Positions 2,249 through 57,950 of a stretch of DNA of 64,000 bases are shown here, one piece after another. A program made the position numbers and the translations under genes. This stretch comes from a virus (Duplodnaviria; Caudoviricetes), in the IMG/VR virus record IMGVR_UViG_3300027874_000010, positions 1 to 64,000 of that record. One strand, given 5' to 3'. The notes beneath the pieces were generated by a model that was given only the letters and a program-made list of their open reading frames with translations, made no database searches and was not told the DNA's origin. The stretch's first letter is position 1, and each line of letters starts with the position of its first letter.

Positions 2249-3733
2249 CTAGGTGACGTTGCCCAGGCGGAAGGCGTCGATGTTCCACGGCGCGCCACCC
2301 ACGCGCTCCCACAAGATGATGCCGGTCTGGTCGGTGTCGGCAAACCGCTCGCGGAGGATGGTGATCGTAATCATGGCCCGCTCCGCGATGATGTAGCTGG
2401 AGAAGTCGCCGTACACGAGGCCGACATCACCCGTGGCCGCTGGATGGGTCACGAAATCGGACTTGTTGACGGGCTTGCCGAGGAGCGCTGGCTGCGGGCT
2501 ATCAAAGCCAGGTGCCCAAATGAAGGCACCCATGCCGTTGACCAACTGGCGGATGTCGTTCTCGGTGAGACGGTGGAGCAGCCACTGAGCGCCGTTCTGG
2601 TACTGGGACGGCAGCGCGTACTGCAGGTTCATCAGCTTGGGAGCCGACCCCATCGTCGCCGTGGTGTTGGAGATGGTGTGTGCCGTGGTGCCGGTCACGT
2701 CGAGCGCCGCGATGGGCGCGTTGACGATGCCCTGCGGCTGCATCGGTCCGCCATCGCCACGGATGAAGCCCTGGTCCTCGACCAACGCCATGTTGCGCGC
2801 GCCGTCCGTTGACAGGAACGTCAGCGGGTTGGTGATCGCGTCCGCCAGGAAGTCGTTGCTCAGCCGAGTCGCCACGCGGATCTTGCGGATCGGGATGTCG
2901 AAGAAGCCGAACGCAGGGTCCACGTCCTGAAACGCGGGAGTCTCACCAGCCCACGATCCCACGAAACCGCTGGTGAAGATCGAGCCGCCGTCAGCGCCCA
3001 GGGCACCCGACAGACCCGAGGTCGTGCCTGGCGCGGGCTGGATGCGCGGGAAGCGGAGCACGTCACGGGAGGTTTGACGCACCATCGCCATGCCGCGCAT
3101 GACCGCGTTCATGGGCAGGCGCGCGAGCACCTCGGCCTGCATGTCGGGCGGCACCAGATAGCCACCTGACTGGTCGATGCCTTCGGAGAGCGCCTTCTGC
3201 TCGGACGGCTCCAGCAGCGTGAACGCCATCGCCTCGTTCTTGGTGCGGATGGCGGTCGCGAACCACTTGTTGAAGACCTCTTTGTACTCGGGCTGCAGCG
3301 CCGCGCGAACCTGGCCGAAGTAGCGCTCCTCGTCCTCACCCTGGGGCGTGCCGAACAGCACGCGCTCGGGGTACATCGGGTGCGGACCGAGCGAGGTCGG
3401 CGCGTAGACCTGGCCGCTCTTGATCTCCCAACCCGCCTGGAGCATGGTTTGGCGACCGTCCGAGTCGGCGTTGATCGCGCCGCGCGGGGTCTTGTACTGC
3501 GGCGATTCGAGATAGGTGTGCAGATCTCGAACCTGATTGGCCTTCTTCTCAAGCTCATGCTCAAGATCGAGCCGTGGCTTGAGTTCCTCGGCCTTGGACA
3601 GCAGCGCTTCCAGCTTCATCTTCAACTCGGCTGGCATGTCCGACAGGTTGTCGCGCCAGCGCGGGTCGTCAATGATGAGTTGGGTCTGACGGTGGACCTC
3701 ACCCAACTCGGCGGCGAGTACCTTGACGCTCAT
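2249..3733 (-). CDS. HK97-family major capsid protein
   Basis: Coiled-coil delta domain, EQKALSEGIDQSGGYLVP, FIRGDG...PQGI, YGDFSSY, ERVGG. Confidence 0.95.
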   Translation of the reverse strand: MSVKVLAAELGEVHRQTQLIIDDPRWRDNLSDMPAELKMKLEALLSKAEELKPRLDLEHELEKKANQVRDLHTYLESPQYKTPRGAINADSDGRQTMLQAGWEIKSGQVYAPTSLGPHPMYPERVLFGTPQGEDEERYFGQVRAALQPEYKEVFNKWFATAIRTKNEAMAFTLLEPSEQKALSEGIDQSGGYLVPPDMQAEVLARLPMNAVMRGMAMVRQTSRDVLRFPRIQPAPGTTSGLSGALGADGGSIFTSGFVGSWAGETPAFQDVDPAFGFFDIPIRKIRVATRLSNDFLADAITNPLTFLSTDGARNMALVEDQGFIRGDGGPMQPQGIVNAPIAALDVTGTTAHTISNTTATMGSAPKLMNLQYALPSQYQNGAQWLLHRLTENDIRQLVNGMGAFIWAPGFDSPQPALLGKPVNKSDFVTHPAATGDVGLVYGDFSSYIIAERAMITITILRERFADTDQTGIILWERVGGAPWNIDAFRLGNVT

Positions 3734-3759: not shown

Positions 3760-5703
3760 TTAGGGTTCGACTGACTGGTACTTAGCCAGTGTCAGTTCCA
3801 TGTCCTTGAGCGCGGCGACGTAGCCGTTGGCTCCCGTGGGCTTGCCGTTCCGCCGCTTGCGGGTCTTGCCCTCGTTGTCTTCTCCCACGCCCTCGGCTGA
3901 AGCGTGGCGGTTCAAATGGGCGATGGCCTTGTCCTCCTGGGACTGGGGGTCGCCCTTCATCTGCGGGGCACGCGACAGGGCGTTGCGGAGGTGCGGCATG
4001 TCCAGCGAGCCGTCGCTCTTGTGGTGCGGGAGCTTGCGGACCTTCTGCCCGGCGTCGTTGGTGTAGACCATCGCGAACGCGGAGTCGGGCAGGTCGCTGA
4101 CGTAGCCGGAGTCCCACTCGGCCTTCTGCTCGAACATCTTGGTGTCGTGCTCGGGGTGGACGGCATCGTGGTGACCCACGAACTCGGTCATCGCCTGCGC
4201 CAGGAAGTCGATGGCCGACGCGCGGTCCTTCTCCTCCTTGCGCTGCGGGTCGTCACGGTCATCACCGTTGACATCCGAGACTTTGGAGTCGTCGTCGTCG
4301 TCGTCATCCCCGTTCTTGGGCTTCAACCACGGCGGCAGATCCTTCTTGGCCTTGCCGCTCGGCGGACGCTTGGTGCCTGGGATCGGGTTGCCGTCCTTAT
4401 CCCAGTGGTCGTGGTCGGTGTCACCCTCGGGCGTCGAGTCGTCGTCGCCGTCGTCGTCCGGATCCCACTTCTTGCGGGCCTTCTCGCCCGCGCCCAGGAG
4501 ATCCATCGCCATCAGCAAGTGGTTGATGCCACCGTGCAGGTTGTCGAGGCTGAGTTCGCCCGCGCTGGTCTTGCCGTCCCAGGCGATGGCCTGGGCGAAG
4601 CGCGCCCGCTCCAGCGCTCGACGGGCGGTGCCGCCGCGCGTCTTGCCGTCCGGGGTCATCGCCTCGTTGAGCGTGCTCTCGTCGCTCTCGGCCCAGGTCA
4701 GCAGTTCGTCCAGCGCCGCCTTGATGTTCTTGAGCTTGGCGCGCATGGTGCCCTTGAGCCGTACGCCGACCTTCTGGCCGTCGAAACCGAGCTTGGTACC
4801 CGTGCTCAGCGCGCGTGCCGCTTCGGACGAATCCAGGCTCAGATCGGCCAGCGTTGCACTGATCTCCGAAAGCGCAGACGTTGCGATTTTGGCCCCGTCA
4901 CCCATGACACCCTCGGCCTGGGCGTGCTGCCGAAGGTGGCCGAGGGCGAACTCGCGGAAGGGGGAGTCGGTGGCGCGATCCAGTTCGCGCTTGACCGCCT
5001 CGACGTTGACCGAGCCGTCTTCGTTGTGGTGGGGGAAGTGGCGCAGGGCGTGAGGGATGGTCTTGCCCTCCATCTGTTCGCCGCCGTCCTCGATGTAGGC
5101 GAACGCCTCGTCTGGAAGCCCCTGGATGAAGGCCGTGCTCCAGACTGGCGTCTCGCCGGTCGCGAAATGCTCGTGGTCCGACATGCCGGCTCCTTTCGTT
5201 CGGGTCTTCACCGCTGTGACGAGCGCCGGCGGCGAGGCGATGACTTGCTTCGCGGCGTACGAGTACTCCATCAGGTCCGCGTCGGTGAGCAGCCGGTACG
5301 TCTTGCCGTCCTTGGTCTGCCACTTCGAGTCGCGCGTCTGGAACCCGATGGACATTCCCAGTGGCTGGCCTGCCGCCTGCAACTCCCTAGCCGTCTGAAG
5401 GAGGTCGTCGCCTGCCTGGGTCTTGAAAATGCGCGTCTTGGTCCACAGGCCACGGTCGTCCGTGCGCATCTCGACCGGGATGCCGACAGGCAGCATCGAG
5501 GAGTTGTGGCCGACGAAGACGGCGATGTCGGATGGGGTCTTCTCGGAAAGCGTCTTGACGAACGCCTTCTTGTCGATCACGTCGCCGTTCAGATCGAGGT
5601 TTCCAAACGTGGCGGCGTAGCCCTCGATTGTCCGCTGCTCGGGATCGACCGCCTTGACCTCTAGGGAGGTCAGGAGTTTGGATTGATCGTCGCGGTCGGG
5701 CAA
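3760..5703 (-). CDS. HK97-type prohead protease with ~470-aa C-terminal extension
   Basis: IEGYAATFGNLDLNGDVI, VGH, GMSIGF, LMEYS; TTG start; duplicated LPDxAFA...LPHH domain. Confidence 0.9.
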   Translation of the reverse strand: MPDRDDQSKLLTSLEVKAVDPEQRTIEGYAATFGNLDLNGDVIDKKAFVKTLSEKTPSDIAVFVGHNSSMLPVGIPVEMRTDDRGLWTKTRIFKTQAGDDLLQTARELQAAGQPLGMSIGFQTRDSKWQTKDGKTYRLLTDADLMEYSYAAKQVIASPPALVTAVKTRTKGAGMSDHEHFATGETPVWSTAFIQGLPDEAFAYIEDGGEQMEGKTIPHALRHFPHHNEDGSVNVEAVKRELDRATDSPFREFALGHLRQHAQAEGVMGDGAKIATSALSEISATLADLSLDSSEAARALSTGTKLGFDGQKVGVRLKGTMRAKLKNIKAALDELLTWAESDESTLNEAMTPDGKTRGGTARRALERARFAQAIAWDGKTSAGELSLDNLHGGINHLLMAMDLLGAGEKARKKWDPDDDGDDDSTPEGDTDHDHWDKDGNPIPGTKRPPSGKAKKDLPPWLKPKNGDDDDDDDSKVSDVNGDDRDDPQRKEEKDRASAIDFLAQAMTEFVGHHDAVHPEHDTKMFEQKAEWDSGYVSDLPDSAFAMVYTNDAGQKVRKLPHHKSDGSLDMPHLRNALSRAPQMKGDPQSQEDKAIAHLNRHASAEGVGEDNEGKTRKRRNGKPTGANGYVAALKDMELTLAKYQSVEP

Positions 5704-6044: not shown

Positions 6045-6833
6045 CTACTCGAACACCGGCAGGAATACCCGTACGCAGTTCGGATGCGCGATGGGGTGCT
6101 CCAGTGCGTCCGCTATAGGGAACGTCAGTTGATCCACGCCGTCCGGGTAGTCGGGATCGTCGTGCTCGACCCACCCGCAGCCCTCGCCGTCGCGCACCTC
6201 CACCAGATCCACTGCTGACTCATCATAGGTGTCGAGCGTGGCCCGCGCGGACGCAAACGCAAGCTCGGTGCGAGCGATTGCCGCCGAGCGATTGGCGTAG
6301 GTCTGGTCCACGATGTCGTCCAGGCCGACGTAGCCGTCCTCGGGTACGCCGTGCGCGATCTGGTGCTGGTTGTAGCCGCGCGCGCCGCCCAGGACCAGCG
6401 CGTCCTGAATGGAGTTGCGCGTCACGTCGTTGATCTGTGTCACGCGGTCGCCGGCAATCGACAGGTAGTCGCGCACGCGCGGGTCGTCGGGATCGGGGGC
6501 CTCGGAGCCGATCAGTTCGCTGGCGATGTCCGCCGCCTGGAGGTACTGGTCGCGCAGATCCGGGTTGAGCACGATCTGCAGGCGACGGTCCTCCTCGTTG
6601 GGCATCAGCGGGTCGGCCTGCTCCTTGAGTTCGCCGTAGCCCCACAGCCCGCCCATCCACACCGGGTACGGCAGCGTGGCGCTCTTGGTCCCCAGGTAGC
6701 GCGCGACCACGCGGTCGGACTGCTGGTGGAAGAACAGCCGCAGCCGCACCGTGAGCATGGTGTAGCGGCGTGCCTGGACGTACTTGAAGCGTTGGGTGAT
6801 GCCGGTCTTGTGGCGCTCGGTCAGGGCTACCAT
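6045..6833 (-). CDS. phage minor head protein (Mu gpF / SPP1 gp7 family)
   Basis: RSAAIARTELA...DGEGC...HPIAHPNCVR. Confidence 0.85.
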   Translation of the reverse strand: MVALTERHKTGITQRFKYVQARRYTMLTVRLRLFFHQQSDRVVARYLGTKSATLPYPVWMGGLWGYGELKEQADPLMPNEEDRRLQIVLNPDLRDQYLQAADIASELIGSEAPDPDDPRVRDYLSIAGDRVTQINDVTRNSIQDALVLGGARGYNQHQIAHGVPEDGYVGLDDIVDQTYANRSAAIARTELAFASARATLDTYDESAVDLVEVRDGEGCGWVEHDDPDYPDGVDQLTFPIADALEHPIAHPNCVRVFLPVFE

Positions 6834-7192: not shown

Positions 7193-7403
7193 TGTGGTTC
7201 GCGATCACCTTCGCCATCGTGCAGTCGGGATCCGGGTCGTAGTGCGGGATCAGCCCGTCGCGCCGAGCTTCATCTACCCAGGCTTGAGCGGTGCCTTCGA
7301 GGTACTTGGCGCGCGCGGCGTGCAGGACTTCATCCTTCTCGGCGTGGACGTGCCCGGCGTCCACGATGTAGCGCTCGCCGCCTAGCTCGACGCGGGCGCT
7401 CAT
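7134..7403 (-). CDS. hypothetical protein (candidate immunity/partner)
   Basis: MSARVELGGERY...; ATGA-coupled to 7400-9754. Confidence 0.6.
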   Translation of the reverse strand: MSARVELGGERYIVDAGHVHAEKDEVLHAARAKYLEGTAQAWVDEARRDGLIPHYDPDPDCTMAKVIANHIKGRYSCAPAPPAEPGQRH

Positions 7404-9754
7404 GTCATCTCCGACAGCGGCGTCGGGAAGATCTGGCGACCACCCTCGCGCGCCTCGGCCAGTAGCTGTTGGGTGAAGTCGAAGCTCTGCGGGTCGTCGC
7501 GGGCGAACTTCACCGGGTCGTCGTGCATGAGTTGCAGCGCCATCGACAGGAACTCGTGGCTGGTCGGCGCGTTGGGACCGTAGTCCTTGCCCATGTACGG
7601 GTCCGCGAACTGGTCGCGGTGCGTCACCTCGTTGTCGTTGTAGTTGCTGCCAGTCACCGAGCGTAACGACACGGTTGGCTCGCCCTGGGTGCGGCTCTCG
7701 ATGTGCGCCTGGATGCGCGGCCCCATGCCCGGGATGTTGTCTTCGAGCCAGTGGCCCATCTCGTGGACCACCGTGCTGTCGGAGTTGTCGCGCGGGTGCA
7801 TGGTGACCATGCCCGTGCCGCTGCTGTGGTAGCTGCGCCCGCTGTCGAACCACTGGTCGTCGGGTGCCATGAACTTGATGCGCGGCTGAAGGAATCCCTG
7901 GGTCACCTGGCCGGTCATCTCGTTGATGCGCTGCACGCCCTGGGTCCAGTTCTTGGGCACCTCGGTGGCTGAGATCGGCGTCAGGTCGCCGCGATAACCG
8001 GTTATCGCCAGGTTGCCTGGGCCGGTCGGGGAGTTGACGTACTTGGCCCGAAGCTCGGCCGTCAGGTTGTCGCGCGCGGCGTCCACCTCGTGCTTGGTCG
8101 CCCAAAAGTTGTTTTGGGTCACATCCATGTTGTGCATCTGGCGGTCGAGTTCGGTCTTGGCGTCTTCGTACTCCTTGCCGTACGTGACCTGATCGTCCTC
8201 TAGCTGCTTGATGACCTCGGGCGAGGCCCCGAGCCGCTTGGCGTCCTCGATGCTTTTCGGCAGCGACCCCACCATGTCGCGCATGTCGCTCCAGTTCTGC
8301 GCGGCGTGCTGGTAGTCCTCGCCCACCTGATCGTATTGCCGCTGCGCCTCGGTCATGCGTGCCTTGAGTGACGCCGTGCGTCGGTCGGCTTCCGCGATCA
8401 TCGCCTCGCGCCTCGCGCGCATCCGCTCGGGGCTGGTGTCGGCACGGACGCCGCCGGTCGGCCCGACCACGGGCTTCGCCGCGCCCTCCTTGGGCTTGCC
8501 CCAGGAACTGACGAACCCCGCGCCGCCCTCGTCGGTGAAGCGACCCGTGTCAGCGTCGTGGTACGGGTTGAACTTCTCCTCGACGGTCTTGGCCTGGTCG
8601 CCGGGCTTCCAGTCTTCGGGTGCGCCCTGCTCGGCCCACTCGATGATGTCCTGCCAGATCTCCCACGCCTGCTCCTCGGTCATGTCGTCCGGCGGCTCGT
8701 CGGTCATCTTCATCATCCGTGCGGCGATGGCCTCGGGCGAGCGGTTGGTGAGTGCGCCGCCCTCGCGCCGCCACTGCTCCCACACCACGGCCTGGAACGC
8801 CGCAGGGTTCATGTTGCGCGCCGACGCTGCGCTGCGCACGCGGTCCGCCGCCCATCCGTAGCCGCCGACTGTCGTCGCGCTCGGGCCGCGCCCGATCTTG
8901 CGGCCCTGGATCAGCGTGTTGACGGCCTTGAGGTTGGCTTCGGTGTCCTCGTGCAGGTTCAGCATGGCGCGCCCCATGTGCGTATCGACGGTCACGTCGA
9001 AGGCCGACTCGGGGTGGCTCAGGTTGTTGTTGAAGGATCGGATCTTGTTGGCGTTGAACACCTCGTCCGGGTCTTCGCCGCGCAGCGCTCGGATGGCGTT
9101 CTCGGCGTTGTTGCCGATGAACGGGTACGGCTTGGAGTGCGGCGTGATCTCGCGGATCTGCTCAGGCGTCATGCCCGGGTGCGCGCGGTCTACCTGCACC
9201 ATCGCGCGCGCAGCTTCGAGGTTGGGCAGTCGCCCGTTCTTGAGGTTCCAGTTGGTCAGCGGGCTGGTCGCCGCGACCGCATCCGTGAAGCGCTGGCGGT
9301 CCACCCCGAGTTGGTCGGCCCACTGGCCGATCTCGTTGTGCTTATCGACGTACCAGTTGGCGTCTTCGGCGTGGCCCTGCTCGATGGCTCGGTCGTACAG
9401 ATCGAGCATGCGCTGCTCCGCGAGCTTGGCGGGCAGATGCGGCGGATCAACAGCCCTGGCGCGGACACCCGTCAGGTGCGCCGTGTCCAGGCCGGTCCGC
9501 GAGGACTTCCACGTCGAGAGGTGGGTGACCGGCGTGCTGACGCCACCGCCGCCACCAGATACGAATCTGCCGCCCTCACCCCTGGGGTGGAGCGACTCAT
9601 CCCACTCTTTGAGTTCGTGCAGGAGCAGGGCGCGTTCCATGTCGAGCAACGCCGCGCGCACATCACGCGGAGCAACCACGACACGACCGTGGGCTACGTC
9701 GAGGCTGACCTCGATCTCACGGAGCTTGGCCTGAAGCGCGTCCCACTCAAGCAC
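7400..9754 (-). CDS. two-module cargo protein: DUF7178/HhH-like domain plus coiled coil and zincin metallopeptidase
   Basis: KEWDESLHPRGEGGRF and KFNPYHDADTGRF motifs; AATSPLTNW, VTVDTHM, QAVVWEQWR; HEMGHWLE...EFLSM. Confidence 0.75.
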   Translation of the reverse strand: MLEWDALQAKLREIEVSLDVAHGRVVVAPRDVRAALLDMERALLLHELKEWDESLHPRGEGGRFVSGGGGGVSTPVTHLSTWKSSRTGLDTAHLTGVRARAVDPPHLPAKLAEQRMLDLYDRAIEQGHAEDANWYVDKHNEIGQWADQLGVDRQRFTDAVAATSPLTNWNLKNGRLPNLEAARAMVQVDRAHPGMTPEQIREITPHSKPYPFIGNNAENAIRALRGEDPDEVFNANKIRSFNNNLSHPESAFDVTVDTHMGRAMLNLHEDTEANLKAVNTLIQGRKIGRGPSATTVGGYGWAADRVRSAASARNMNPAAFQAVVWEQWRREGGALTNRSPEAIAARMMKMTDEPPDDMTEEQAWEIWQDIIEWAEQGAPEDWKPGDQAKTVEEKFNPYHDADTGRFTDEGGAGFVSSWGKPKEGAAKPVVGPTGGVRADTSPERMRARREAMIAEADRRTASLKARMTEAQRQYDQVGEDYQHAAQNWSDMRDMVGSLPKSIEDAKRLGASPEVIKQLEDDQVTYGKEYEDAKTELDRQMHNMDVTQNNFWATKHEVDAARDNLTAELRAKYVNSPTGPGNLAITGYRGDLTPISATEVPKNWTQGVQRINEMTGQVTQGFLQPRIKFMAPDDQWFDSGRSYHSSGTGMVTMHPRDNSDSTVVHEMGHWLEDNIPGMGPRIQAHIESRTQGEPTVSLRSVTGSNYNDNEVTHRDQFADPYMGKDYGPNAPTSHEFLSMALQLMHDDPVKFARDDPQSFDFTQQLLAEAREGGRQIFPTPLSEMT
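7992..8007. repeat. 16-bp palindrome copy 2
   Basis: CGATAACCGGTTATCG inside CDS. Confidence 0.9.
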
Positions 9755-9762
9755 TTGGGCTT

Positions 9763-9966
9763 CTAATCGAAGTCAAAATGGGGTGCTTTGCCTTCGGCCA
9801 TCGTCTTCTCTAAGCCTTGCTTCAGGCGATCCCAATACTCCCTGAACAGGGGCGTGTCGGGTATCCCATCTTCCTTCATGCAGTCCTCAAAGGTCTTGCC
9901 GTCAGCAATGCAGTTCCCCATCGAGGCGAACTCACTCATGTCTGGCACACCATTGTCGGCAGGCAT
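9763..9966 (-). CDS. small acidic protein (candidate zeta antitoxin)
   Basis: MPADNGVPDMSEF...; strong SD AAGGAAAGGAG; own promoter. Confidence 0.65.
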   Translation of the reverse strand: MPADNGVPDMSEFASMGNCIADGKTFEDCMKEDGIPDTPLFREYWDRLKQGLEKTMAEGKAPHFDFD

Positions 9967-10037: not shown

Positions 10038-13000
10038 TTAGCCCGTGTACTGGCGGTCGGAGCGCTTCTGCGCGTTCTCCCATGCTGTCCTGTCGTGGAT
10101 GATGACCTGACCCTGCTTGGTGCGTTCCGCGATGAGCTTCGCGGCTCGCTGTGGCGAACCCTTGGGTGCCCAGGTGTTGTCCCAAATCTTCACGCTGTCG
10201 TAGCCGGCCTCGCCGTTCAGGATGCGCGGCAGCATCGAGTTGACGCTGGTGTGCGCCGCCTCGATGATCGCCTCGTCCACGGGACGGTCGGTACGCCCCT
10301 TCGCGGCAGCGATGGCCTGGGGGATCGGCACCGTCAGGTAGTTGGCGTTGACCTCCCTGGCTCCGTCGTCGCGGTAGCCCTGGATCTTGGTCTGCAGCTT
10401 GGTCATGGAGCTATTCATGACGGCATCCACGACGGCGTTGCGGCCGTTCTGCAACGCCGTCTTGACCACCTTGCCCGCGATGTCTGAGGACTCCTCGTGG
10501 ACCTTCATCGCCCACTTGACCGAGCCAGCATCGCGCATGGCCTGCGTCTCGGGGATGTCCTCGGTCTTGTTCCAGTCGGCGTTGCTCCACACCGCGTGGT
10601 CCTTATCGGGCACGGCGAACTGCTCGGGGCTGCGCTGCAGCGCCGTGCTCTTGCCCGACGCGCCGCCACCGCCCAGGACGCTGACGGTCGGTCCCCCCTC
10701 GGCGGGTGGCACGTAGCCGCCGCCAGCCACACCTTGTTCGTGGTTCTCGTAGATGCCGTGTTGGGCGCGGTCGATGGCCGGCTCGTGTACCTTGTCCAGG
10801 CGCGCCTGCACGTAGTCGCCCTTCTTGCCGCCCTCGGGCATGTACAGCTTCTGAGTGTCACCCTTGTCGCGCAGGAAGCCGTGCGGGTTGTCCTTGGTAA
10901 TCAGCGACGAGGAGTCGCCCGACTCGACGTTCTCGCCGCCGCCGACGCCAGCGGCGAAGCGCCCCGAGTTGTCGCGCGGGTGCTTGTCCTCGAAGTCCTG
11001 ATCCTTGGTTTCGGGCAGATCGAGGATGTTCAGCCAGGTCTGCGTCTTGGGGCGGAACACCTGTACCGGCTGGCCCGCACCGAGCAGCGAGCGCTCCATG
11101 TCGCGGATCTGCTCGGTGACGGCCTTGGTCAACTCGTCGCGGGAGTCCACGATGGTGTGCTCCCACCCGTTCAGGTTGAGCTTGCCGTTCTTGTCGCTCT
11201 CCTCGGACGGCGCGTGCCCAGGCCAGTAGCCGGTCGCCTCGTGGTGCAGCCACGCGCACAGCGCCTGGGGGTTGTCCACCTTGTCGGTGAGCGTGTCCAC
11301 ACAGTCATCGAAGTCGCCCGGGTGCCCGCCGTCGAAGCGGTCCTTCCAGTAGTCGAGCAGTGCCTCCAGATTGCCCGCCTTGTAGCTCAGCCGCTCGCCG
11401 TCGTCCGCGACCTTGGTCGGCCACTCGCCCGTGGCGTGCTTGTACAGCCACGCCGTCACTTCGAGGTGGTCGTCCAGGGCTTTCATCGCCGCATCGAAGT
11501 CGCCGCCGCCGGCCGCGAAGGTGTCGCGCCAGTGGTTGAGTAGTTCCACCACCTCGGCGGTCTTCTTCTTCTTGGGCGGCTGGCGCGGGCCACCTGGCGG
11601 GACCATGATGCCGCCGTAGGTGTCGATGCCCTCGGTCAGGATCTTGGTGGCATTCAGCGGGATGGCGACCTGGCGACCATCGGTGCCCGAGTAGGTCAGA
11701 TCCCCCAGGGTGATGTGCATGCCATACAGCGGCGACCTCTGGCCGACGTACTTCGAGACGGCCGAATGCTTGATGTAGGCGATGGTCACGTGCGGCGTGT
11801 AGTTGGTGTGCGTCTCGACGTTGGCGAGCGAGCGCTTGATGATGCCGTTGAGATGGCCCGCGTCGTCGCTGGTGACGCTCACGTACAGCGGCACGCCGCC
11901 GCCCTGGTCCTGGCCGGCGAAGACGTAGTTCGGCCCAAACGTCATGGCGACCGGCGTCTGGTCCTTGACCACGCGCGCCACGTCGCTCGCGCCGACGTTG
12001 GGCATCAGCCCGTACTTGACGGTGACGTGCGGCTCCATCTCGATGCCGCCGCTGCCCAGGTCGTCGGGGTCGATGTGGTCCTCAGCCCACTCGACCAGTT
12101 CGTTGCCCAGGATCTCTGGCAGGTTGAGTTGCGTCGAGGAGTAGTCGTAGCCGCTGGTCGCGTCGGTCTTGAGCATGTACGGGTCTTGGCCGCACCAGGC
12201 GCACACGCCGAGTTCCACCGAGCGGTAGTGGCCCATGTCGTCTTCGGGGCAGTCGGGGATGATCTCGAACCGCCCGTCGCTGGTCATCTTCGTCTCGATC
12301 ATCTTCCCTCCTGGGCCGGCTGAGCCTGACTCCTGTGCGCCACCCGGTGGCGGTACGCCAGGGATGGATGGTGGTGCGCCGCCGCCGCCAGGTCGTCCGC
12401 CGAACGCGCCGCCGCCACCTGGCGGCAGGCCGGGCGGCTGGTCAGGCTGTCCTGGCGGCTTGTCCCCCTTGTGGTAGTTCGCCAGTTCGTCGGAGGGCGT
12501 CGGGATCATGTTGGCTGGCAGCAGCACCCACCCTGGCTGGTCGGTCGGGTAGCCGAGCGTCTGCGCCGCGACGTGCCACGGGATCAGGCCCGCCGTGAAG
12601 TCGGCACGCACGCGGGCGTGCACCTTGTCCACGTCCTCGGTGTAGCCCGGCACCTGGCTGAGGTCGAAGTCGAAGTGGTCAACCTCGGGGAAGTCGGGCT
12701 TGATCTGCAGCGAGAACTGCTGCGCCAGATCCTCGTACATCGGAGCCAGCGAGCCAGTCCACCACTGCGCTCGGTCCGACTCCTTGTTCGAGTTGTTCAG
12801 GCCCGACGAGGACTGGTGGCCGAGGACCGTCCAGATGATCGACGGCGGCACGTCCAGTACCGCGCAGATCTTGGACTCGGTGACGCGGTTGATGTCGTCC
12901 AGGCCCAGGCCCACCGGGTCCATGCCCATCTTGGTGTAGGTCGCCTGCCCGTTGTCGATGACCAAGACGTTGCCCCACCCGTCTGGCCCGCCGTACTGCT

Positions 13001-13727
13001 GGCGGAAGCGCTGGCGGATGATCTCGCGCTCGTTGGGTTCGACCGAGCGCATGATGTTGAGCAACCCGCTCGGCACGCCCGCGTTCCTGAAGAACGCCGT
13101 GGTGAACTCGCGGCACCACACGTCGATGTCGATGCGCTCGGCCAGCACCGCCAGCGGCGACAGGCCGTAGTAGTCGTTCAGCGGGTTGGGGTTCTTGAAG
13201 TGGATGACATCATCCGGATCCAGGGTGAACACCCGCTCCCCGATGCGGTACTCGTACGCCTGGATGTAGTCCTTTTCGTCAGGGATGATCCACACGCGGT
13301 CGGGTCGCAGCGGCCAGTACTCGATGATCTTGCCCGAGCGCCCTCGCACGATCTCCCAGTAGGCGTTGCCGTTGATCTTGAGCGCCACCACCGTGGACGA
13401 CCACAGCATGAACGTCGTCCACCACTTGTTGGGGCGGTTCAGGACATCCAGCGCGGGGTGGTCGAAGATGGCGTCGGCGTCGTGCGCCTTGGAATCGAAG
13501 ACCACCATGCGCGGCAGCGCCGCTGACTTCGCGACGGCCTGGCACGCGGCGAAGACGACCTCGGACCCCAGGTAGCCCTTGCGCGCCAACTGGTCGTACG
13601 AACGTTGGTTCCAGATCGGCGTGGCCGGCAGGCCAACCTGCCAGGTCGGGATGGCCGTCGCCACAGCCTGCTTCGTCTCGCCCCCGAACAGAGCGAGCGT
13701 GCGGAAGGCGTCGGCCAGCAGGCCCAT
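10038..13727 (-). CDS. HK97-family portal fused to 2H phosphoesterase (Acb1-like) and zeta-toxin-like P-loop kinase
   Basis: Portal motifs (GNAYW, LRPDRV, VIHFKNPNP, YGLSPL, FFRNAGVPSG); PHVTVKYG/PHVTIAY; GGGGASGKS, VHEESS, AVVD. Confidence 0.9.
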   Translation of the reverse strand: MGLLADAFRTLALFGGETKQAVATAIPTWQVGLPATPIWNQRSYDQLARKGYLGSEVVFAACQAVAKSAALPRMVVFDSKAHDADAIFDHPALDVLNRPNKWWTTFMLWSSTVVALKINGNAYWEIVRGRSGKIIEYWPLRPDRVWIIPDEKDYIQAYEYRIGERVFTLDPDDVIHFKNPNPLNDYYGLSPLAVLAERIDIDVWCREFTTAFFRNAGVPSGLLNIMRSVEPNEREIIRQRFRQQYGGPDGWGNVLVIDNGQATYTKMGMDPVGLGLDDINRVTESKICAVLDVPPSIIWTVLGHQSSSGLNNSNKESDRAQWWTGSLAPMYEDLAQQFSLQIKPDFPEVDHFDFDLSQVPGYTEDVDKVHARVRADFTAGLIPWHVAAQTLGYPTDQPGWVLLPANMIPTPSDELANYHKGDKPPGQPDQPPGLPPGGGGAFGGRPGGGGAPPSIPGVPPPGGAQESGSAGPGGKMIETKMTSDGRFEIIPDCPEDDMGHYRSVELGVCAWCGQDPYMLKTDATSGYDYSSTQLNLPEILGNELVEWAEDHIDPDDLGSGGIEMEPHVTVKYGLMPNVGASDVARVVKDQTPVAMTFGPNYVFAGQDQGGGVPLYVSVTSDDAGHLNGIIKRSLANVETHTNYTPHVTIAYIKHSAVSKYVGQRSPLYGMHITLGDLTYSGTDGRQVAIPLNATKILTEGIDTYGGIMVPPGGPRQPPKKKKTAEVVELLNHWRDTFAAGGGDFDAAMKALDDHLEVTAWLYKHATGEWPTKVADDGERLSYKAGNLEALLDYWKDRFDGGHPGDFDDCVDTLTDKVDNPQALCAWLHHEATGYWPGHAPSEESDKNGKLNLNGWEHTIVDSRDELTKAVTEQIRDMERSLLGAGQPVQVFRPKTQTWLNILDLPETKDQDFEDKHPRDNSGRFAAGVGGGENVESGDSSSLITKDNPHGFLRDKGDTQKLYMPEGGKKGDYVQARLDKVHEPAIDRAQHGIYENHEQGVAGGGYVPPAEGGPTVSVLGGGGASGKSTALQRSPEQFAVPDKDHAVWSNADWNKTEDIPETQAMRDAGSVKWAMKVHEESSDIAGKVVKTALQNGRNAVVDAVMNSSMTKLQTKIQGYRDDGAREVNANYLTVPIPQAIAAAKGRTDRPVDEAIIEAAHTSVNSMLPRILNGEAGYDSVKIWDNTWAPKGSPQRAAKLIAERTKQGQVIIHDRTAWENAQKRSDRQYTG

Positions 13728-14724: not shown

Positions 14725-16200
14725 TCAGATCACCCACACGCCCACCGATCCCTGGACCAGTAGCTCGGTCAGCGACCAGACGGCGGCGTCCAGGCGGTTG
14801 GGCGACCAGCCCGTGGTGACCGGATCCCAGGTGCACATCTCGTCTTCAAGCTCGGTCAGCCCGTTGACGCCGACGTGGTGCACGCGGCCCTGGTCGTACA
14901 GCATGGCGACCGGCTCAGCCCTGATCGCCTTGCCGCGCGAGGCCGAGCGCTTCTGGACGTTGCAGTAGATGCCGCGCTCGCGGGCGGCTGTCTCGATGAC
15001 CGCCATCGCCATGTCGCCGCCGAAGTTCGTCTCGACCACGATCAGGTCGGCCTTCCAGTCGAGCCACGCCTGGACCACCCGCGCGCCCCATCCCTCGGGG
15101 TGCAGCTTGCACGAGTAGTCCGCGATCACGTAGCCGTGCGGCAGCGCGCCCGAAAGCTGCGTCGAGTCGGCCACCCAGTTGTCGGGCGCGGGTCCAACGC
15201 CGCATACCACGATGCCCTGCTCGTCGTTCTCGGCACCCGCGCCGCCGGACGGGTCCACGCCGATCACCACACGTCGGAGGTCGGTGGGAGCGCGTGGTAC
15301 CCGCTGGCTGTCCAGCAGCGCGCGGTTCCAGAACGAGTCGGGGTTGTCGTCAATGAGCTTGCCCTCAAGCTCCTGGCGACCGAGCCGCGTGCCGGCGTAC
15401 TTGTCGTAGAAGAACTGGCGAACGTCGGCGTGCAGGAAGCGGTTCTGCGCCGTGGTCGCGATGGTCAGTGCCGTCTTCGGGTCGTTGACCAGATCCTTGA
15501 TGCGCTTACGCGGCTTCGGGGTGGTCGAGGCAACAGCGTGTGGGTGCGGCCCCAACCGCAACCCGAAGCGCATGTGATCGTAGCACTCGTCCAGCTTCTG
15601 CCACGCGGCCAGTTCCTCCAGCCACGCCAGACAGCGGTTGCCACCCGCTCGCAGCCGCTCAACGTCCTCGGGGAAGCTCGCGCCGAACAACTTGCCCTCC
15701 GATCCGTTGGGCCACACGATGTGCAGCCCGCCCTGGGTCTTGAACTTGATGCCGCCCGAGTGCGCCTTCAGGCCAGACGGCCCGGTGACGCACGCCTCCA
15801 CCGCGTCTCCCAGGTTGGGGGCGATGATGGCGATACGATGGCCGCCGGGCAACGACTCCAGACACGGTGGACCCAGTACATGTTGGGTCACGTAGTGGGC
15901 CATCGCGTCGGTCTTGCCCGACCCGCGCCCGCCGAGCATCAGCCAGAGCAGCCACCAGTCGCCCTCGGGCGGGATCTGGTGCGGTTGCGGCGTCCAGGCG
16001 TTGAGGAGACGGTCGAGTTCTTCTAGCTCGCGCTTGTTGAGGAGAGGGAGAAGCTCCTGAAGCTCCTCGACCTCAACCCCGAATCTAGCCGCTTGCTGCC
16101 GAACTGTCTCCAGTCGCGGGTCGTCCGGTGGAACGTGTCCGTTTTGCCCGTTCGCGCGCGAGATCAAGGATGCCGCTAATTCGCTCGGCTCGCTGGTCAT
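14725..16200 (-). CDS. terL: terminase large subunit
   Basis: Walker A GGRGSGKT, Walker B LAWLEE, nuclease GVDPSG, SPNRLDAAVW. Confidence 0.95.
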   Translation of the reverse strand: MTSEPSELAASLISRANGQNGHVPPDDPRLETVRQQAARFGVEVEELQELLPLLNKRELEELDRLLNAWTPQPHQIPPEGDWWLLWLMLGGRGSGKTDAMAHYVTQHVLGPPCLESLPGGHRIAIIAPNLGDAVEACVTGPSGLKAHSGGIKFKTQGGLHIVWPNGSEGKLFGASFPEDVERLRAGGNRCLAWLEELAAWQKLDECYDHMRFGLRLGPHPHAVASTTPKPRKRIKDLVNDPKTALTIATTAQNRFLHADVRQFFYDKYAGTRLGRQELEGKLIDDNPDSFWNRALLDSQRVPRAPTDLRRVVIGVDPSGGAGAENDEQGIVVCGVGPAPDNWVADSTQLSGALPHGYVIADYSCKLHPEGWGARVVQAWLDWKADLIVVETNFGGDMAMAVIETAARERGIYCNVQKRSASRGKAIRAEPVAMLYDQGRVHHVGVNGLTELEDEMCTWDPVTTGWSPNRLDAAVWSLTELLVQGSVGVWVI

Positions 16201-16789: not shown

Positions 16790-17150
16790 ATACATGCAGC
16801 GGCGCTACCGAGCGCGCATGGCGACAGCTATCGAACGGCTCGGTGGCCGGTGCATCCAGTGCGGCTCGACCGAGAGCCTGGAGTTCGACCACATCGACCC
16901 GTCCACGAAACTCATGGACATCTCCCAGGCCGTCACCTACTCGACCCGCGTGTTCGAGGCGGAACTGGCGAAGTGCCAACTGCTGTGCGCCTCGCACCAT
17001 CAGCAGAAGACGCTCCAGCAGAACGGCATGACCCTGGCCCGAGGCACCCACGGCACGCTCTCCGCGCTCCGCTACTGTCGCCCGCCATGTGACGCCTGCC
17101 GAGCGGCCAAGGCCGACTACAACCGGCAGCACTACCTCTCGCGCCGTTAG
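16764..17150 (+). CDS. HNH endonuclease
   Basis: CIQCGSTESLEFDHIDP...CQLLCASHHQQKT; C-terminal HGT...C..C; stop lies inside tRNA-Lys. Confidence 0.85.
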   Translation: MSSNAYMREYMQRRYRARMATAIERLGGRCIQCGSTESLEFDHIDPSTKLMDISQAVTYSTRVFEAELAKCQLLCASHHQQKTLQQNGMTLARGTHGTLSALRYCRPPCDACRAAKADYNRQHYLSRR

Positions 17151-17214
17151 CTCAACTGGCTAGAGCAAGAAGCCCTTAACTTCGAGGTTCTCGGTTCGAG
17201 TCCGAGACGGCGCA
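17141..17214 (+). tRNA. tRNA-Lys(CTT)
   Basis: GCGCCGT/ACGGCGC acceptor; GCTC/GAGC D arm; loop CC-CTT-AA; CTCGG-TTCGAGT-CCGAG. Confidence 0.9.
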
Positions 17215-17311
17215 CTGCCCCCGGCGTTGACCCCGCTGGCGCGTAAACGTTCGCTCATCAGCGACGACCCGCCTTGTCACGTCGGGGCTTTTCCATATCG
17301 TGGAGCGGCCA

Positions 17312-20880: not shown

Positions 20881-21264
20881 ATGTCCACCACCAAGACGCC
20901 GTTCGTGCCGAGCTTCATCCCTGAGCCGGACGGCCTGCCAATCTGGAAGATGCGCGAGATCGAGCGGTCACGCCAGCACTTCATCGAGGGCGGCGCGTAC
21001 GTCGGCCCCGAGGGTGAGGTGCGCTGGTTCTCCAACGACAGCGTGGTCCCGGGCGACGTGTTCCGTGATGCCTACGTGCGGGTGCCCAACCCCGAGGCTC
21101 AGGAGCGGGTGCGCGACCGTGAGACGCAGGCGTTCCTGGCCGAGTACCGCCGGGCCAACAAGGGCCGCAAGCGGTCGGCTGAGGAGATATTTGAGATGCG
21201 CGCGGCCTTCGGCCCGGGCGAGACGGTTGTCGATGTGATAACCGGTGAGCGGTTCGAGACGTGA
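20881..21264 (+). CDS. hypothetical
   Basis: Strong SD; ends VVDVITGERFET. Confidence 0.7.
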   Translation: MSTTKTPFVPSFIPEPDGLPIWKMREIERSRQHFIEGGAYVGPEGEVRWFSNDSVVPGDVFRDAYVRVPNPEAQERVRDRETQAFLAEYRRANKGRKRSAEEIFEMRAAFGPGETVVDVITGERFET

Positions 21265-22133
21265 GTACGACCTACTCACCCTCCCTGTGCACGGCGGCGC
21301 GGGATCTCCCTGTTCGCCTGTCCGAGTGGTGGATGGAACCCAAGATGGACGGCATCCGTCTGCAGATGGTCGCCAGAGGTGGCCGCGTAGACTGCTACTC
21401 GCGGGCGGGGCTGACCTACAACGGTCGTATGCCCGCCGTCGAGGAGGCCCTGTCCGCCCTGGACGTGGTAGTCGATGGCGAGGTCGTCTGGTTCTCACCC
21501 GAAACGGGTGAGGTGGACTTCCACAAAGGCTCGGGCCTGTTCCGTCGCGAAGACTCGGCGCGGGCGCAGCGCTTCGAGGGGCCGCTGACCTACGTGGTCT
21601 TCGACATGCTCGAACTGGCCGGCCAGGATCTGCGCAAGCTGCCCATCGAGACACGGCGCGGCCTGCTGGCGCAGTTGGTCGAGGGCCTCGGGTGCCCGCA
21701 GCTTCGCCTGATCGAACAGGCCGAAGCGTCACCCGAGGCACAAGCAGCCTACATCGCGCGCTACCGCGAAGGGGTGGTCCTCAAGAAGAAGGGCAGCACC
21801 TACGTCGCGGGCCGGCCTCCGACCTGGCTCAAGCTGAAGGTGGTCGAGGATGCCGATGTGGTCATCACCGGCTTCGAGCGCGGCAAGGGCAAGTACGCCA
21901 ACACCCTGGGGTGCGTCGAGTTCAGCCAGTTCCGCGAGGGCCTGTTGGAGCGGCGCGGGACGTGCTCGGGCATGACCGACGCCGAGCGCGATCACATCTG
22001 GCACAACCGCTCCGAGTACGAGGGCAAGGTGCTGGTCATCCGTCACATGGGAGCCGATGGCGAGGGCTTCCGGCACCCACAGTGGAGCCACGTTCGAGAA
22101 GACAAAAACGCCTGGGAGTGCGTCTGGTCATGA
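21261..22133 (+). CDS. lig: ATP-dependent DNA ligase
   Basis: EPKMDGIR (KxDG), VVDGE, YVVFD, EGVVLK, WLKLK, C-terminal OB fold. Confidence 0.9.
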   Translation: MSTTYSPSLCTAARDLPVRLSEWWMEPKMDGIRLQMVARGGRVDCYSRAGLTYNGRMPAVEEALSALDVVVDGEVVWFSPETGEVDFHKGSGLFRREDSARAQRFEGPLTYVVFDMLELAGQDLRKLPIETRRGLLAQLVEGLGCPQLRLIEQAEASPEAQAAYIARYREGVVLKKKGSTYVAGRPPTWLKLKVVEDADVVITGFERGKGKYANTLGCVEFSQFREGLLERRGTCSGMTDAERDHIWHNRSEYEGKVLVIRHMGADGEGFRHPQWSHVREDKNAWECVWS

Positions 22134-25177: not shown

Positions 25178-25498
25178 TCAACTTTCGATGCTCAAGACGA
25201 GGCCGCGACCGTCGTTAGGGAAGCTCTCCTGATGCCCGGGCCACGCCACCAGCCAGTGGTAGAAGTACGCGCCAGGAACGTCCGTCTCGCCAGGTAGCCA
25301 GATGTGCTGCACCAGCCCCTGGGTCGCATCGGCACCCGCGATGGTCGCGGGCAGGATCGTCTCGATGCTGGTCGCCATCTCAAAGAGCTTGAGCGAGACG
25401 GTGGCGTCGGTGAGATCCACGGCACTGAGATCCGGGTTGAGCAGCGTGCCCGTGATTGTCGGCAGCGTGTCGGAGAGCTTGAGATAGAAGTCGGCCAT
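25178..25498 (-). CDS. BppU-like (baseplate upper/Ig-like) protein
   Basis: FYLKLSDTLP...VDLTDATV...GLVQHIW..GETDVPG.Y...ESFPNDG. Confidence 0.65.
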   Translation of the reverse strand: MADFYLKLSDTLPTITGTLLNPDLSAVDLTDATVSLKLFEMATSIETILPATIAGADATQGLVQHIWLPGETDVPGAYFYHWLVAWPGHQESFPNDGRGLVLSIES

Positions 25499-28400
25499 CA
25501 GCTTGGCTCCTCGCCTCGATTCGGGTTGCCCCACGTCACCTTGCCAGATGCACCCGCGCTGGTCCTAGAGCCGTAGGGCGAGCCACTGGTTGCCCTGCGC
25601 CGTCCGCCCGCCGAGGTGCGCCCGTTGCTGCCGCCCACTGAGGTCCGCGACGGACCGGTGTGGATGATCTGACCGTCACCGGTCGTGCCCTCGAAGCGGT
25701 TGATGTGCAGGGTCGCATCCAGCGTGGCCTGCCCAACGGATGACCCGAACAGCATCTTGAAGATGGCGATCTCGCATTCGAGGGCGACCGAGGTGAGCAC
25801 GCCCGATGGCGGCAGGTAGACCAGCAGCCCGGCCGCGAAGCTCGACTGCGCGACGGTGACCACCGTCAGGCCGATACGCAGCGGACTCAGGCTCGAAGAC
25901 GCCTGGGCGACCAGCGGCGGCGGCTGGATGTACTGATAACGGGTTATCGCTGCCGTGCTGCCCGAGGCCGTCAGCACCGTCGCCTGGACGAAGACCGTCA
26001 GCCCCGCTTGAGTGCCGCCCTGAGCCGCGCCCGAGGCCCCCAGGCCGATGGCGAGCACCGCGTCGAGGGTGACGTGGGTGGTGACGATGCCCGCGAACTC
26101 GGTGCCCGCCTGGACGAACGTCACACCCGAGGTCTGCGCCTGGGCGATGGTGACGACACTCAGGCCGAAGTTGACCGGCGGCGCGCTCAGGCTGGCCTGG
26201 GCGATGACCGTGCCCGAGAGCACCGCGCGCTGGCCGGTCTGCGCGCTCGACGCGGCCTGGGCGACGGACTGGCCCGCCAGCAGCAGGACGAAGGGGACGT
26301 TCTGGACCAGCGCCTGACCCTGGACGCTGCCCGCAACCAGCGTGTTGAGCAGTGCGTCGAACTGCGACTGGGCGCGGATCGGGAGTGGCACCAGCGTGGC
26401 ACCGAAGGCGCACGCTGAGATCGCCTGCGAGACAACCTGGCCGCTGAGCGCCACGCGCACCGTCAGCGCCGTGACGCTCGTGCTCGCCTGCGGCAGGACG
26501 CTGCCAGCCATGAAGTAGGTGATGAACGGGTTGGGGACGAAGACCGTCGCCTGGGCCGCGCTCGCGCCGACGAGTGGGGAGGCAGGCACCAGCGAGCACG
26601 AGGTGCTGGCCTGGGCGACGGTCAGCCCGGCGAGGCCGTACGTAGCGGGCAGTTGTCCCGTGGCCTGGGCCTGGGCGACCACAGATCCCTGCAGCGCCAG
26701 GGCGACCTGGGCCGTGGCCGTGGCCTGGGCGACCACGACGGCCGAGCCGATCAGCGGCGAGTAGATCGCGGAGAGTGTGGCCTGCGTCGTGATCTGGCCG
26801 GTCAGAAGCTCGGTGGCCGGGCCGAAGACCAGCGCCTGGGCCGTGACGGTGCCCGCCAGCCCGATGGTGAGCGTGCCGGTGCCCGTCGAGAGCGCAACGG
26901 ACTGGCTCGCCAGGAGCACCGTGGGTGCACCAAGCACTTCATCCAGCGCCGCCTGGGTGACGATGGCGACCGGTGCCAGGACCAGTTTGAGCGCCGCCGT
27001 GGTGTTGGTCGTGGTGAGGACCGCACCCGCCATCTGGACGCCGGTGCCGAAGGCTCCCGTCGAGATGGCCTGGGCGACGACGGCCTGCGAGCCGAGGGCG
27101 ACCTTGAGGCCAGGGATTGGCCCGACTTCATCCAGTGCCGCCTGGGTCGCGATGGTGCCCGCCAGGGCGTTGGCTTGGCTCAGCGCCGCAGTGCTTACTG
27201 CCTGGGTCGCGGCATTGCCAGCCAGCCCCAGGACCAGCGTGTTGGTACTCAGCACCTGGGTGACCGTCGCGCCCTGGAGCTTCGCCGTCAGCGTGGCTGT
27301 GGACTGCGCCTGGGTGACCGTCGCACCCGTAACCAGCATGCCGATGATGAGTTGCGCCGAGGTGCTCGACGCCTGTGCGGTGGTGACCTGGGGCGGGAAG
27401 GCGACGGTGATGATCGCGCTGGTCGATGCCTGCGCTGTGCCGATGCCGGTCAGGTTCGACATCGCACCGACGAAGACGGCCTGGGCGACGATGGTCTGGT
27501 TGCCGAGCGACAGCTTCAGCCCTGGGGTTGCGCCGATCTCATCCAGCGCAGCCTGGGTGGTGACCGTGCCCGTCAGGATGTTGACCTGGCTGAGCGCGCC
27601 AGCCAGCGTGACCTGGGTGACCGTCGCCGCTGGCAGGAAGACGGTTGGCGCGCTCGTACTGAGCGCCTGGGTCGCCGTCAGCCCCTGCAGCTTGAGGGTC
27701 GGCGCGGCTCCGATCTCGTCCAGTGCGGCCTGCCCGAAGAAGCTCGCCTGGAGCGCCTGGACCTGAACCATCACCGCGCTGGTGCTGGCCTGGGTGACGG
27801 TCGGTCCTGCCAGCAAGATCCTGGGCGCGCCGGTCGCGACGGCCTGGGTGACGATGCCCGGGGTACTCAGCCACTCGGTGAGCGGACCGCTGACGATGGC
27901 CTGGGCGATGACCGATCCCTGAACCAGCAGCGTCGGCGCAGCCAGGATCTCGTCCAGGCCGGCCTGGGTCGCGATGGTGCCCGCCAGCGCCTGCTTCGCC
28001 GTGAGCGTGCCGCTCAGCGTTGCCTGGCCGATGGAGTTGCCGCCGAACGCTGGCGCGACCTCGCGCGGCGCGCCCAGGACGATGCGCCCGAGCAGCGTCA
28101 TCGGCGTGCCCAGGACCGCCGTGTCGCGCAGCGCGATGCCGAGGCGCGTCGGCACACGAAGGTTGGCCGAGGTAACTGCCTGGGTCGCCACGACCTGGGT
28201 GCCGAGCGCGAAGCGCGGGCTGGCGGTGCTGACGGCCTGGGCGACGGGCGAGGCCGTCAGCATCTCCCACATCGGACCGATGACCGTGGCTTGCGCGACA
28301 GAGGTGCCCGCCAAACCAGCGGTCAGCGTAGTGAGCACCGGTGCGCCCTGGCTGACCGTCGCGCCCGCCAGTGCGAAGGCTTGGCTCAAGGTTGCGGACG

Positions 28401-57875: not shown

Positions 57876-57950
57876 GCACGAGGAGCCAGGCCGGTTGCCA
57901 GGCGCACGTCTGCAAAACGTGATTCGCGGGTTCGACTCCCGCCTCGTGCT
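57876..57950 (+). tRNA. tRNA-Cys(GCA)
   Basis: GCACGAG/CTCGTGC acceptor; CACGT-CTGCAAA-ACGTG; GCGGG-TTCGACT-CCCGC; U discriminator. Confidence 0.85.

Follow-up and report, generated by a model that had tools for sequence, protein, structure and literature searches.

A phage portal protein extended by a 2H phosphoesterase and a zeta/AvrRxo1-like kinase: a candidate portal-anchored cargo protein of an uncultured soil phage

The portal fusion gene

The subject of this work is a portal protein of an uncultured soil phage (Caudoviricetes) that continues, in the same polypeptide chain, into a tail of enzymatic and other modules. The DNA analyzed (the window) is the first 64 kb (64,000 nucleotides) of the 74-kb IMG/VR viral contig IMGVR_UViG_3300027874_000010. 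The minus strand of the window carries, at positions 10038–13727, a single stop-free open reading frame (ORF) of 1229 residues (134 kDa) which consists, from the N- to the C-terminus, of an HK97-type portal, a Pro/Gly linker, a C/H/C/C motif, a 2H domain, two GDFD modules, a tag and a zeta/AvrRxo1-like kinase. An initial annotation made from the letters alone had placed portal and tail in one uninterrupted frame, and this is what the ORF contains. The motifs named in that annotation are all where it had put them: IETK (residues 477–480), MTSDGRF (481–487), the HxT motifs (at 567 and 646), GDFD (at 742 and 804), the KTQTW...PETK spacer (894–908) and the PRDNSGRF tag (917–924). The features to which the text refers are listed here by their position in the window, with the main support for each in brackets.

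10038–13727 (−), the whole portal–effector fusion ORF (no stops; identical on eight contigs; full-length homologues with 60–77% identity)
12483–13727 (−), HK97-type portal core, residues 1–415 (Pfam PF04860; phrog_2662; 46% identity to an ordinary portal)
12303–12482 (−), flexible Pro/Gly-rich linker, residues 416–475 (read from the sequence; a similar linker is present in the plain portal of a relative)
12300–12314 (−), Shine–Dalgarno (SD)-like GGAGGGAAG and, after it, the conserved ATG of Met476, where translation of the tail alone (82 kDa) might start internally, or else a remnant of a gene fusion (four DNAs)
12153–12299 (−), candidate cut site between IETK and M (after K480) and a C-x6-H-x8-C-x2-C motif, residues 477–525 (conservation in five homologues)
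11652–12152 (−), 2H phosphoesterase, residues 526–692, with HxT motifs at H567 and H646 (Pfam PF13563; AlphaFold2, AF2; Foldseek)
11595–11651 (−), copy of the capsid junction motif, residues 693–711, with a predicted prohead-protease cut after K695 (identity to the major capsid protein, MCP)
11208–11564 (−), two GDFD three-helix modules, residues 722–770 and 783–840 (phrog_6439; helical model; duplicated)
10923–11156 (−), helical spacer, KTxxW..LPETK element (candidate cut after K908), HPRDxxGRF tag and Gly-rich spacer, residues 858–935 (hidden Markov model, HMM, of the tag)
10041–10880 (−), zeta/AvrRxo1-like P-loop kinase, residues 950–1229 (PF06414; AF2; Foldseek; profile)
9763–9966 (−), 67-residue acidic protein, a predicted, antitoxin-like kinase inhibitor (conserved position; complex model)
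3760–5703 (−), 647-residue S78 prohead serine protease with a long extension at its C-terminus, presumably the enzyme of processing (PF04586; phrog_80)
3143–3202 (−), junction of the delta domain and the N-arm of the MCP, residues 178–197, the original of the motif copied in the tail (motif pattern; conservation in 115 MCPs)

The fusion ORF lies after the gene of the large terminase, TerL (14725–16200), and is followed downstream by genes for a tagged 784-residue head protein, a MuF-like 262-residue protein, the S78 protease and an HK97-fold MCP (2249–3733). The TerL, protease and MCP genes form one operon on the same strand as the fusion, which occupies the position expected of an HK97-type portal gene, adjoining TerL and upstream of the protease and capsid genes. 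The MuF-like protein is a possible separate product of positions 6045–6833, as suggested by a PHROG match; the fusion polypeptide itself contains no MuF domain.

A mis-assembly that joins separate portal and tail genes, or a sequencing error that hides a stop between them, could be suspected in a metagenomic contig, all the more so in one whose linker DNA is of low complexity and GC-rich. However, eight independently assembled contigs from at least five samples (ENA and JGI; the longest contig is 118 kb) encode an identical fusion protein in the same gene order. Four homologues of 1229–1233 residues, which share 60–77% identity with the fusion, carry the same three Pfam domains and align with it end to end, and they keep the single frame across linkers that differ in length and sequence. 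A chimera or a hidden stop, which the initial annotation had named as what could undo the fusion, is ruled out by these conserved homologues and by the identical protein in independent assemblies, and we regard an artefact of this kind as extremely improbable. Among the full-length homologues, variation in length is confined to the Pro/Gly linker, and C493, H500, C509, C512, both HxT motifs and the Walker A lysine are invariant in all five. No cultured relative was found by megablast and tblastn against 50,697 phage records, in which distant portals and one 2H domain (from an uncultured 595-kb phage) were matched.

Portal core, linker and GDFD appendage

The portal is the ring by which DNA enters and leaves the head, and its C-terminus is established to point into the head. 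In the fusion, residues 57–359 match the Phage_portal family of Pfam (PF04860) with an E-value of 8.8e-55 and 186.6 bits (cut-off 39.1), covering profile positions 2–290 of 321, and the core is also matched by phrog_2662 (residues 25–413) and phrog_12. A relative with a 58% identical MCP has an ordinary portal of 518 residues, 46% identical to the fusion over residues 1–413, which ends in a Pro/Gly/Ala linker and a single GDFD unit that is 63% identical to that of the fusion. The portal of another relative is 457 residues long.

The GDFD units are helical in the AF2 model of residues 481–900, and the second of them matches phrog_6439 (E 4e-14); the GDFD region has no Pfam family, no PDB sequence match and no informative Atlas neighbour. 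These modules had been counted among the effectors of the tail. Judging from the 518-residue plain portal, which carries one of them as well, GDFD belongs natively to the C-terminus of portals of this lineage, as an appendage, and is no effector. Because the plain-portal relative ends in a linker and a GDFD unit, these two elements are the ancestral appendage around which the enzymes were grafted.

The C/H motif and the 2H phosphoesterase

The segment between the linker and the 2H domain contains a candidate Zn-knuckle-like C/H motif, which is modelled with low confidence (pLDDT, the predicted local distance difference test score, of 43–54) and is not assigned a fold. The residue that precedes this segment's candidate cut, at position 480, is K or R in all five homologues.

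Residues 565–656 match 2_5_RNA_ligase2 (PF13563) with an E-value of 6.7e-7, above the gathering score. The 2H fold is predicted with a pLDDT of about 95 in the same AF2 model, and H567-x-T569 and H646-x-T648 are invariant in the homologues. Foldseek gives a probability of 1.0 for the similarity to LigT, CPDase and Usb1, with LigT/ThpR-type cyclic phosphodiesterases first and Acb1 at rank 34, and a profile search against the PDB has phage Acb1 (PDB id: 9q2g) as its top match (E 8.9e-5). Single-sequence searches of the pieces of the tail against PDB sequences returned nothing useful, and profiles were required. According to BFVD, 2H domains are also found within large head proteins of cultured actinophages.

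The capsid junction copy and the prohead protease

The boundary between the N-terminal delta region and the Phage_capsid domain of the MCP reads EQK followed by ALSEGIDQSGGYLVPP, and the portal tail reads, between the 2H and GDFD modules, ATK followed by ILTEGIDTYGGIMVPP. The tail copy is identical to MCP residues 180–196 at 11 of 17 positions, and in all six frames of the window the junction pattern matches just these two sites. Across 115 MCP homologues, the most distant of which share 45% identity, the motif is 90–100% conserved, and no tail homologue lacks the copy. In the AF2 model the copy is disordered, with a pLDDT below 50, and the disordered stretch spans residues 695–717.

In HK97, the delta domain is removed just before the equivalent N-arm. 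By this analogy the MCP junction would be the site of capsid maturation, with the exact position of the cut taken from HK97, and since the tail copies this junction, the site after K695 is likely to be a prohead-protease site as well. The protease of the operon is identified as S78 by both Pfam (PF04586, E 4e-16) and PHROG (phrog_80, E 1e-31). Cuts at K480, K695 and K908 are computed to yield products of 52.7, 23.3, 23.8 and 34.7 kDa, so that the portal left by a cut at K480 would be 52.7 kDa and not the mature portal of about 45 kDa that had been anticipated.

Tags at the module boundaries

A tag HMM finds 14 strong in-frame copies in five minus-strand, head-associated genes of the window, together with the preceding KTxxW..ExK element. 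Nine copies are located in a 2892-residue ORF, two in a 619-residue ORF and one each in a GNAT gene, the 784-residue ORF and the portal. In all five genes the tag marks the starts of modules, and 12 of the 14 copies come immediately after a lysine. The same tag is found at the start of stand-alone kinases in other metagenomes; a literature search on the tag motif found nothing relevant.

The proposal that the tail is head cargo released at lysine sites, made in the initial annotation, gains support from the sequence, because the junction copy follows K695, lysines precede the tags, position 480 is K or R and an S78 protease is encoded nearby; the proposal is partly supported.

The other tagged genes differ in content. 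The 2892-residue ORF (43155–51833, −) has no Pfam match, and its nine KTxW..ExK elements and QPRDxxGRW tags are spaced at about 320 residues; it is probably a string of tagged modules and further head cargo. The 784-residue protein (7400–9754, −) consists of a tag, DUF7178 and a C-terminal region with HEMGH, annotated as a zincin-like 'minor head protein'. The 619-residue protein with two tags is encoded at 41327–43186 (−), and the GNAT acetyltransferase with one tag at 51830–52651 (−). The relative L002 carries an extra 271-residue gene (3896–4711, +) after its portal fusion, with a QPRDxxGRW tag and a poly-Gly spacer before an uncharacterised domain, so that the cargo set differs between close relatives. 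In P0026, a 1342-residue fusion of Phage_portal_3, 2H and zeta, another repeated linker, GGPGSGNFGHAGRPG..GGS, lies between the modules and is possibly the counterpart of the boundary tag in a different phage lineage.

The C-terminal kinase and its predicted inhibitor

Residues 1010–1169 match the Zeta_toxin family of Pfam (PF06414) with an E-value of 2.1e-10 and 40.8 bits (cut-off 22.3). The AF2 model of the kinase has a pLDDT of 89.6, and its Foldseek matches are headed by AvrRxo1-ORF1, followed by zeta and PezT and, from rank 10 onward, by polynucleotide kinases. The profile search gives a similar order (AvrRxo1, 1.1e-9; zeta, 1.5e-8; Pnkp1, 7.6e-5), with the HEESS/HSESS motif and the catalytic Asp shared. 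The Walker A lysine (K1026) and the catalytic D1051 are invariant in 23 sequences, and the HEESS motif is invariant as well. The earlier label of zeta kinase holds for the Pfam family, but by fold and by profile the closest relative is AvrRxo1, an NAD 3'-kinase, and zeta comes next.

A small gene (63–67 residues) follows the kinase in every kinase-bearing homologue whose contig continues; homology to the 67-residue acidic protein of the window was checked for L006 alone, where the two are 52% identical. This protein has no Pfam family above threshold, and a search for homologues gave back the protein itself alone. The predicted complex of the kinase with the 67-residue protein has an ipSAE of 0.91, with 0.01 for the best control; the runs share at least 80% of contacts, and the pLDDT of the partner is at least 91. 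In calibration, 58 of 80 solved complexes and two of 110 mismatched pairs attained the ipSAE mark. The predicted interface spans the P-loop, the catalytic Asp, the HEESS motif and the lid of the kinase. The 67-residue protein is thus predicted to be an inhibitor that caps the active site, and the presence of this adjoining gene suggests that the kinase is toxic.

In L002, which is 77% identical to the fusion over residues 15–903, the kinase is replaced, directly after the tag, by a small-alarmone-synthetase-like module (PDB id: 8vx3, E 1.7e-13). The next small gene of L002 is an unrelated 87-residue ORF, whereas the two kinase-bearing loci, the window and L006, share the acidic protein of 63–67 residues. 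On this one contrast, the sequences indicate that the terminal module and the small gene downstream of it are exchanged together, as a toxin–immunity cassette. A further match of the swapped-in module (L002, 2466–3530, +; P0162) is to the C-terminus of the XopAD/skwp type III effectors (NCBIfam, E 4.5e-34), and both of the alternative toxins of the portal tail therefore have relatives among plant-pathogen effectors.

Distribution of the modules and other genes of the window

A search with the tail returned 4528 matches, many of them in proteins of 2000–5000 residues (up to 5127). The modules are found in MuF+zeta(+ART) and portal+2H fusions, the kinase often being fused to MuF without a 2H domain. 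The order of 2H and then kinase recurs on the unrelated Phage_portal_3 family (P0021 and P0026). The P0021 fusion is followed by a 56-residue gene that overlaps its stop codon (L010, 7010–7180, +) and has no sequence similarity to the 67-residue protein.

Elsewhere in the window, positions 21261–22133 (+) encode a 290-residue ATP-dependent ligase, which matches DNA_ligase_A_M (E 1.5e-24) and, more weakly, RNA_ligase (3.3e-6). There are three tRNA genes on the plus strand, Lys-CTT (17141–17215), Cys-GCA (57876–57952) and Asn-GTT (61987–62060). Probable tail fibre or tail spike proteins are a 2305-residue protein (25498–32415, −) with three Laminin_G_3 (concanavalin-like) domains and a 1030-residue protein (33383–36475, −) whose last domain is an intramolecular chaperone of the Peptidase_S74 type.

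Discussion

We consider it reasonably probable that the fusion is a portal-anchored 'polyvalent' cargo protein, of which the cleavage, packaging, ejection and substrates are inferred. Its 2H domain and kinase are unrelated domains of effector type that reside on one chain encoded in the head operon. In the proposed sequence of events, residues 1–415 would form an ordinary HK97-type portal with its C-terminus directed into the head, and the tail would hang in the procapsid on the flexible linker. The native appendage would have been expanded by the insertion of the Zn-knuckle-like motif and the 2H domain, the duplication of GDFD and the addition of the tag and the kinase. In the producing cell, the downstream 67-residue protein would hold the kinase inactive. 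In the procapsid, the S78 prohead protease would cut the tail at exposed lysines, most likely at K695, with K908 and K480 as the other candidates, so that a portal of 53 kDa and separate modules of 23, 24 and 35 kDa would result. The free enzymes would exit with the DNA and be the first to act in the new host, where 2H might destroy cyclic-nucleotide or 2',3'-cyclic-phosphate defence molecules and the kinase might phosphorylate a nucleotide cofactor such as NAD or UDP-GlcNAc.

Several points weigh against this proposal. The phage is uncultured and known from metagenomes alone, and the support consists of sequence and models. The profile search of the PDB with the MCP reached the RcGTA capsid protein and not HK97 gp5, and the position of the MCP cut is taken by analogy with HK97; the RcGTA structure paper gives no capsid cleavage site, and a literature search for a GTA N-terminal peptide produced no match. 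The K480 site is weak, its conservation being limited to K/R, and if it were left uncut, the portal would keep the 2H enzyme attached. For the cuts near the tags, the zincin peptidases encoded by neighbouring cargo genes are equally good candidates. The 2H subfamily is ambiguous, LigT-like by fold and Acb1-like by profile. The complex prediction may partly mirror memory of the solved epsilon/zeta and AvrRxo1/AvrRxo2 complexes, and the covariation of the swapped module with its putative immunity gene is a single contrast between L002 on one side and the window and L006 on the other.

The tail might also be made mainly as a free 82-kDa protein that starts at Met476, so that the fusion gives some tethered copies, or the fusion might be recent and retain an old start signal. 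Met476 is located exactly at the end of the linker. The SD-like GGAGGGAAG with its ATG is present in three of the four available DNAs, and in the fourth, L007, GAGGGAGAAAAG precedes the ATG despite different amino acids. All four DNAs retain a GGA codon, which is rare in this phage (6% of Gly codons), while the neighbouring Gly codons drift, the region of Met476 is among those of highest synonymous conservation, and an SD-like element lies upstream of just six of the 241 in-frame ATGs. A second stretch of unusually high synonymous-site conservation, equal to that at Met476 in the same four DNAs, is found at 11090–11200 (−; residues 842–872). On the other hand, GGAGG-like strings arise from Gly-rich linkers anyway, most genes of this phage are without a strong SD, and no split form with separate portal and tail genes is seen among the 4528 tail matches. 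Internal initiation as the main source of the tail thus appears doubtful, if conceivable, and it is compatible with portal-anchored cargo, since both can coexist. Some free 82-kDa tail may also be made from Met476, as the conserved element suggests. The initial annotation had up to 12 copies of each effector loaded stoichiometrically; exactly 12 are not required, as this start may add untethered tail.

A tail that is never released would remain covalently attached to the portal and function at the vertex or within the head, for instance as internal structural mass or through an activity on the packaged nucleic acid. The cleavage of the tail is a prediction from sequence, and GDFD, as a native appendage of plain portals, gives at least a part of the tail a portal-linked role. 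But the two soluble enzymes with intact catalytic residues, one of which has a predicted inhibitor and is exchanged as a cassette, fit effectors better; the junction copy sits in a disordered segment; and MuF fusions and giant multi-domain proteins contain these modules as well. We therefore find a permanently attached tail unlikely. Slightly less credible again is that the 2H domain (as a 2',3'-cyclic phosphodiesterase) and the kinase (as a 5'-OH polynucleotide kinase) form an RNA-repair pair that heals tRNAs cut by host anticodon nucleases, in the manner of Trl1 or T4 Pnkp. The 2H domain is structurally nearest to the LigT/ThpR RNA cyclic phosphodiesterases, polynucleotide kinases are among the fold and profile matches of the kinase, the two enzymes occur together on two portal families, and the phage encodes tRNAs and a ligase. 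However, this ligase is of the DNA-ligase type (PF01068), and both the profile and the fold of the kinase place it nearer to AvrRxo1 and zeta, with which it shares the HEESS/HSESS motif. Furthermore, its predicted active-site inhibitor implies toxicity, it can be replaced by an alarmone-synthetase-like module, and it is often found on MuF proteins that have no 2H domain.

To our knowledge, effectors fused to portal or MuF proteins have so far been inferred from domain architectures only, and we know of no description of their release from the head scaffold. Polyvalent proteins were described by Iyer, Burroughs, Anand, de Souza and Aravind in 2017, who reported fusions of 2H domains to portal or MuF and of zeta-like kinases to MuF and inferred that they are packaged and injected (PMC5512222); a 2022 survey repeats the inference of head packaging for 2H–portal fusions (PMC9503650). 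The relevant passages of both papers propose autoproteolysis by zincin domains and do not mention processing by a prohead protease (PMC5512222, PMC9503650). As in these proteins, several unrelated enzymatic domains are present in one polypeptide encoded among head genes. Unlike them, the fusion has both enzymes on one portal, grafted around a native GDFD appendage, and contains a capsid-junction copy as its likely release site, with the gene of a predicted cognate inhibitor following it.

MuF polymorphic toxins of temperate phages, reportedly described by Jamet et al. in 2017, and the 'portal and MuF-like fusion protein' of Streptomyces phages likewise combine a head-anchoring N-terminus with a variable C-terminal toxin, which is followed by a small immunity gene that varies together with it. 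In the fusion, the anchor is the portal itself, with no MuF domain in the polypeptide. The kinase resembles those of zeta/epsilon, PezT/PezA and AvrRxo1/AvrRxo2 in its fold, Walker A motif, catalytic Asp and HEESS-type motif, and the predicted position of the 67-residue protein, over the active site, is like that of epsilon and AvrRxo2 in their solved complexes (PDB ids: 1gvn and 4z8v), but here the toxin is the last module of a portal and not a free protein. The 2H domain has the fold and the two HxT motifs of Acb1 and LigT/ThpR. Acb1 of T4 is a free protein; the 2H domain of the fusion is larger, structurally nearer to the LigT type and attached to a virion protein.

Release of head cargo by a prohead protease has precedents. 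The internal proteins of T4 carry a capsid-targeting sequence that is cut by the prohead protease. In the giant phage SPN3US, ejection proteins are head cargo cut at capsid-type protease sites, according to the pertinent parts of two reports (PMC10052503, PMC7411985). As proposed for the fusion, the recognition motif of the protease is common to cargo and MCP in these phages, whose cargo is ejected with the DNA. The T4 and SPN3US proteases are of the T4 type and recognize short motifs, whereas an S78 (HK97-type) protease and a 17-residue junction copy are implied here.

Since portal–2H and MuF–zeta fusions are already known from genome comparisons, the fusion is a well-documented and unusually complete example and not a new principle. 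The junction copy, the native GDFD appendage, the inhibitor gene and the cassette swap are additions not found in the pertinent passages of the polyvalent-protein literature. The analysis also corrects an over-reading, as the GDFD part of the tail is an ordinary portal appendage.

Proteins that a phage delivers together with its DNA act ahead of all phage gene expression, which makes them prime candidates for first-strike counter-defence. The locus offers testable handles on such proteins: the predicted cut at K695, the Lys-tag boundaries common to five cargo genes, the kinase and its predicted inhibitor, and a module swap that occurs in nature. More tentatively, the tail might be a self-contained load-and-release device that reveals how polyvalent cargo is marked for processing in HK97-like phages. 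In it, the junction copy and a Lys-tag code would address the prohead protease, an internal ribosome-binding site would add untethered copies, and the terminal toxin would be silenced by a co-encoded inhibitor with which it is exchanged as a cassette. If this were true, cargo and cleavage sites could be predicted for many uncultured phages from the junction copy and the KTxW..ExK/HPRD..GRF/W tag.

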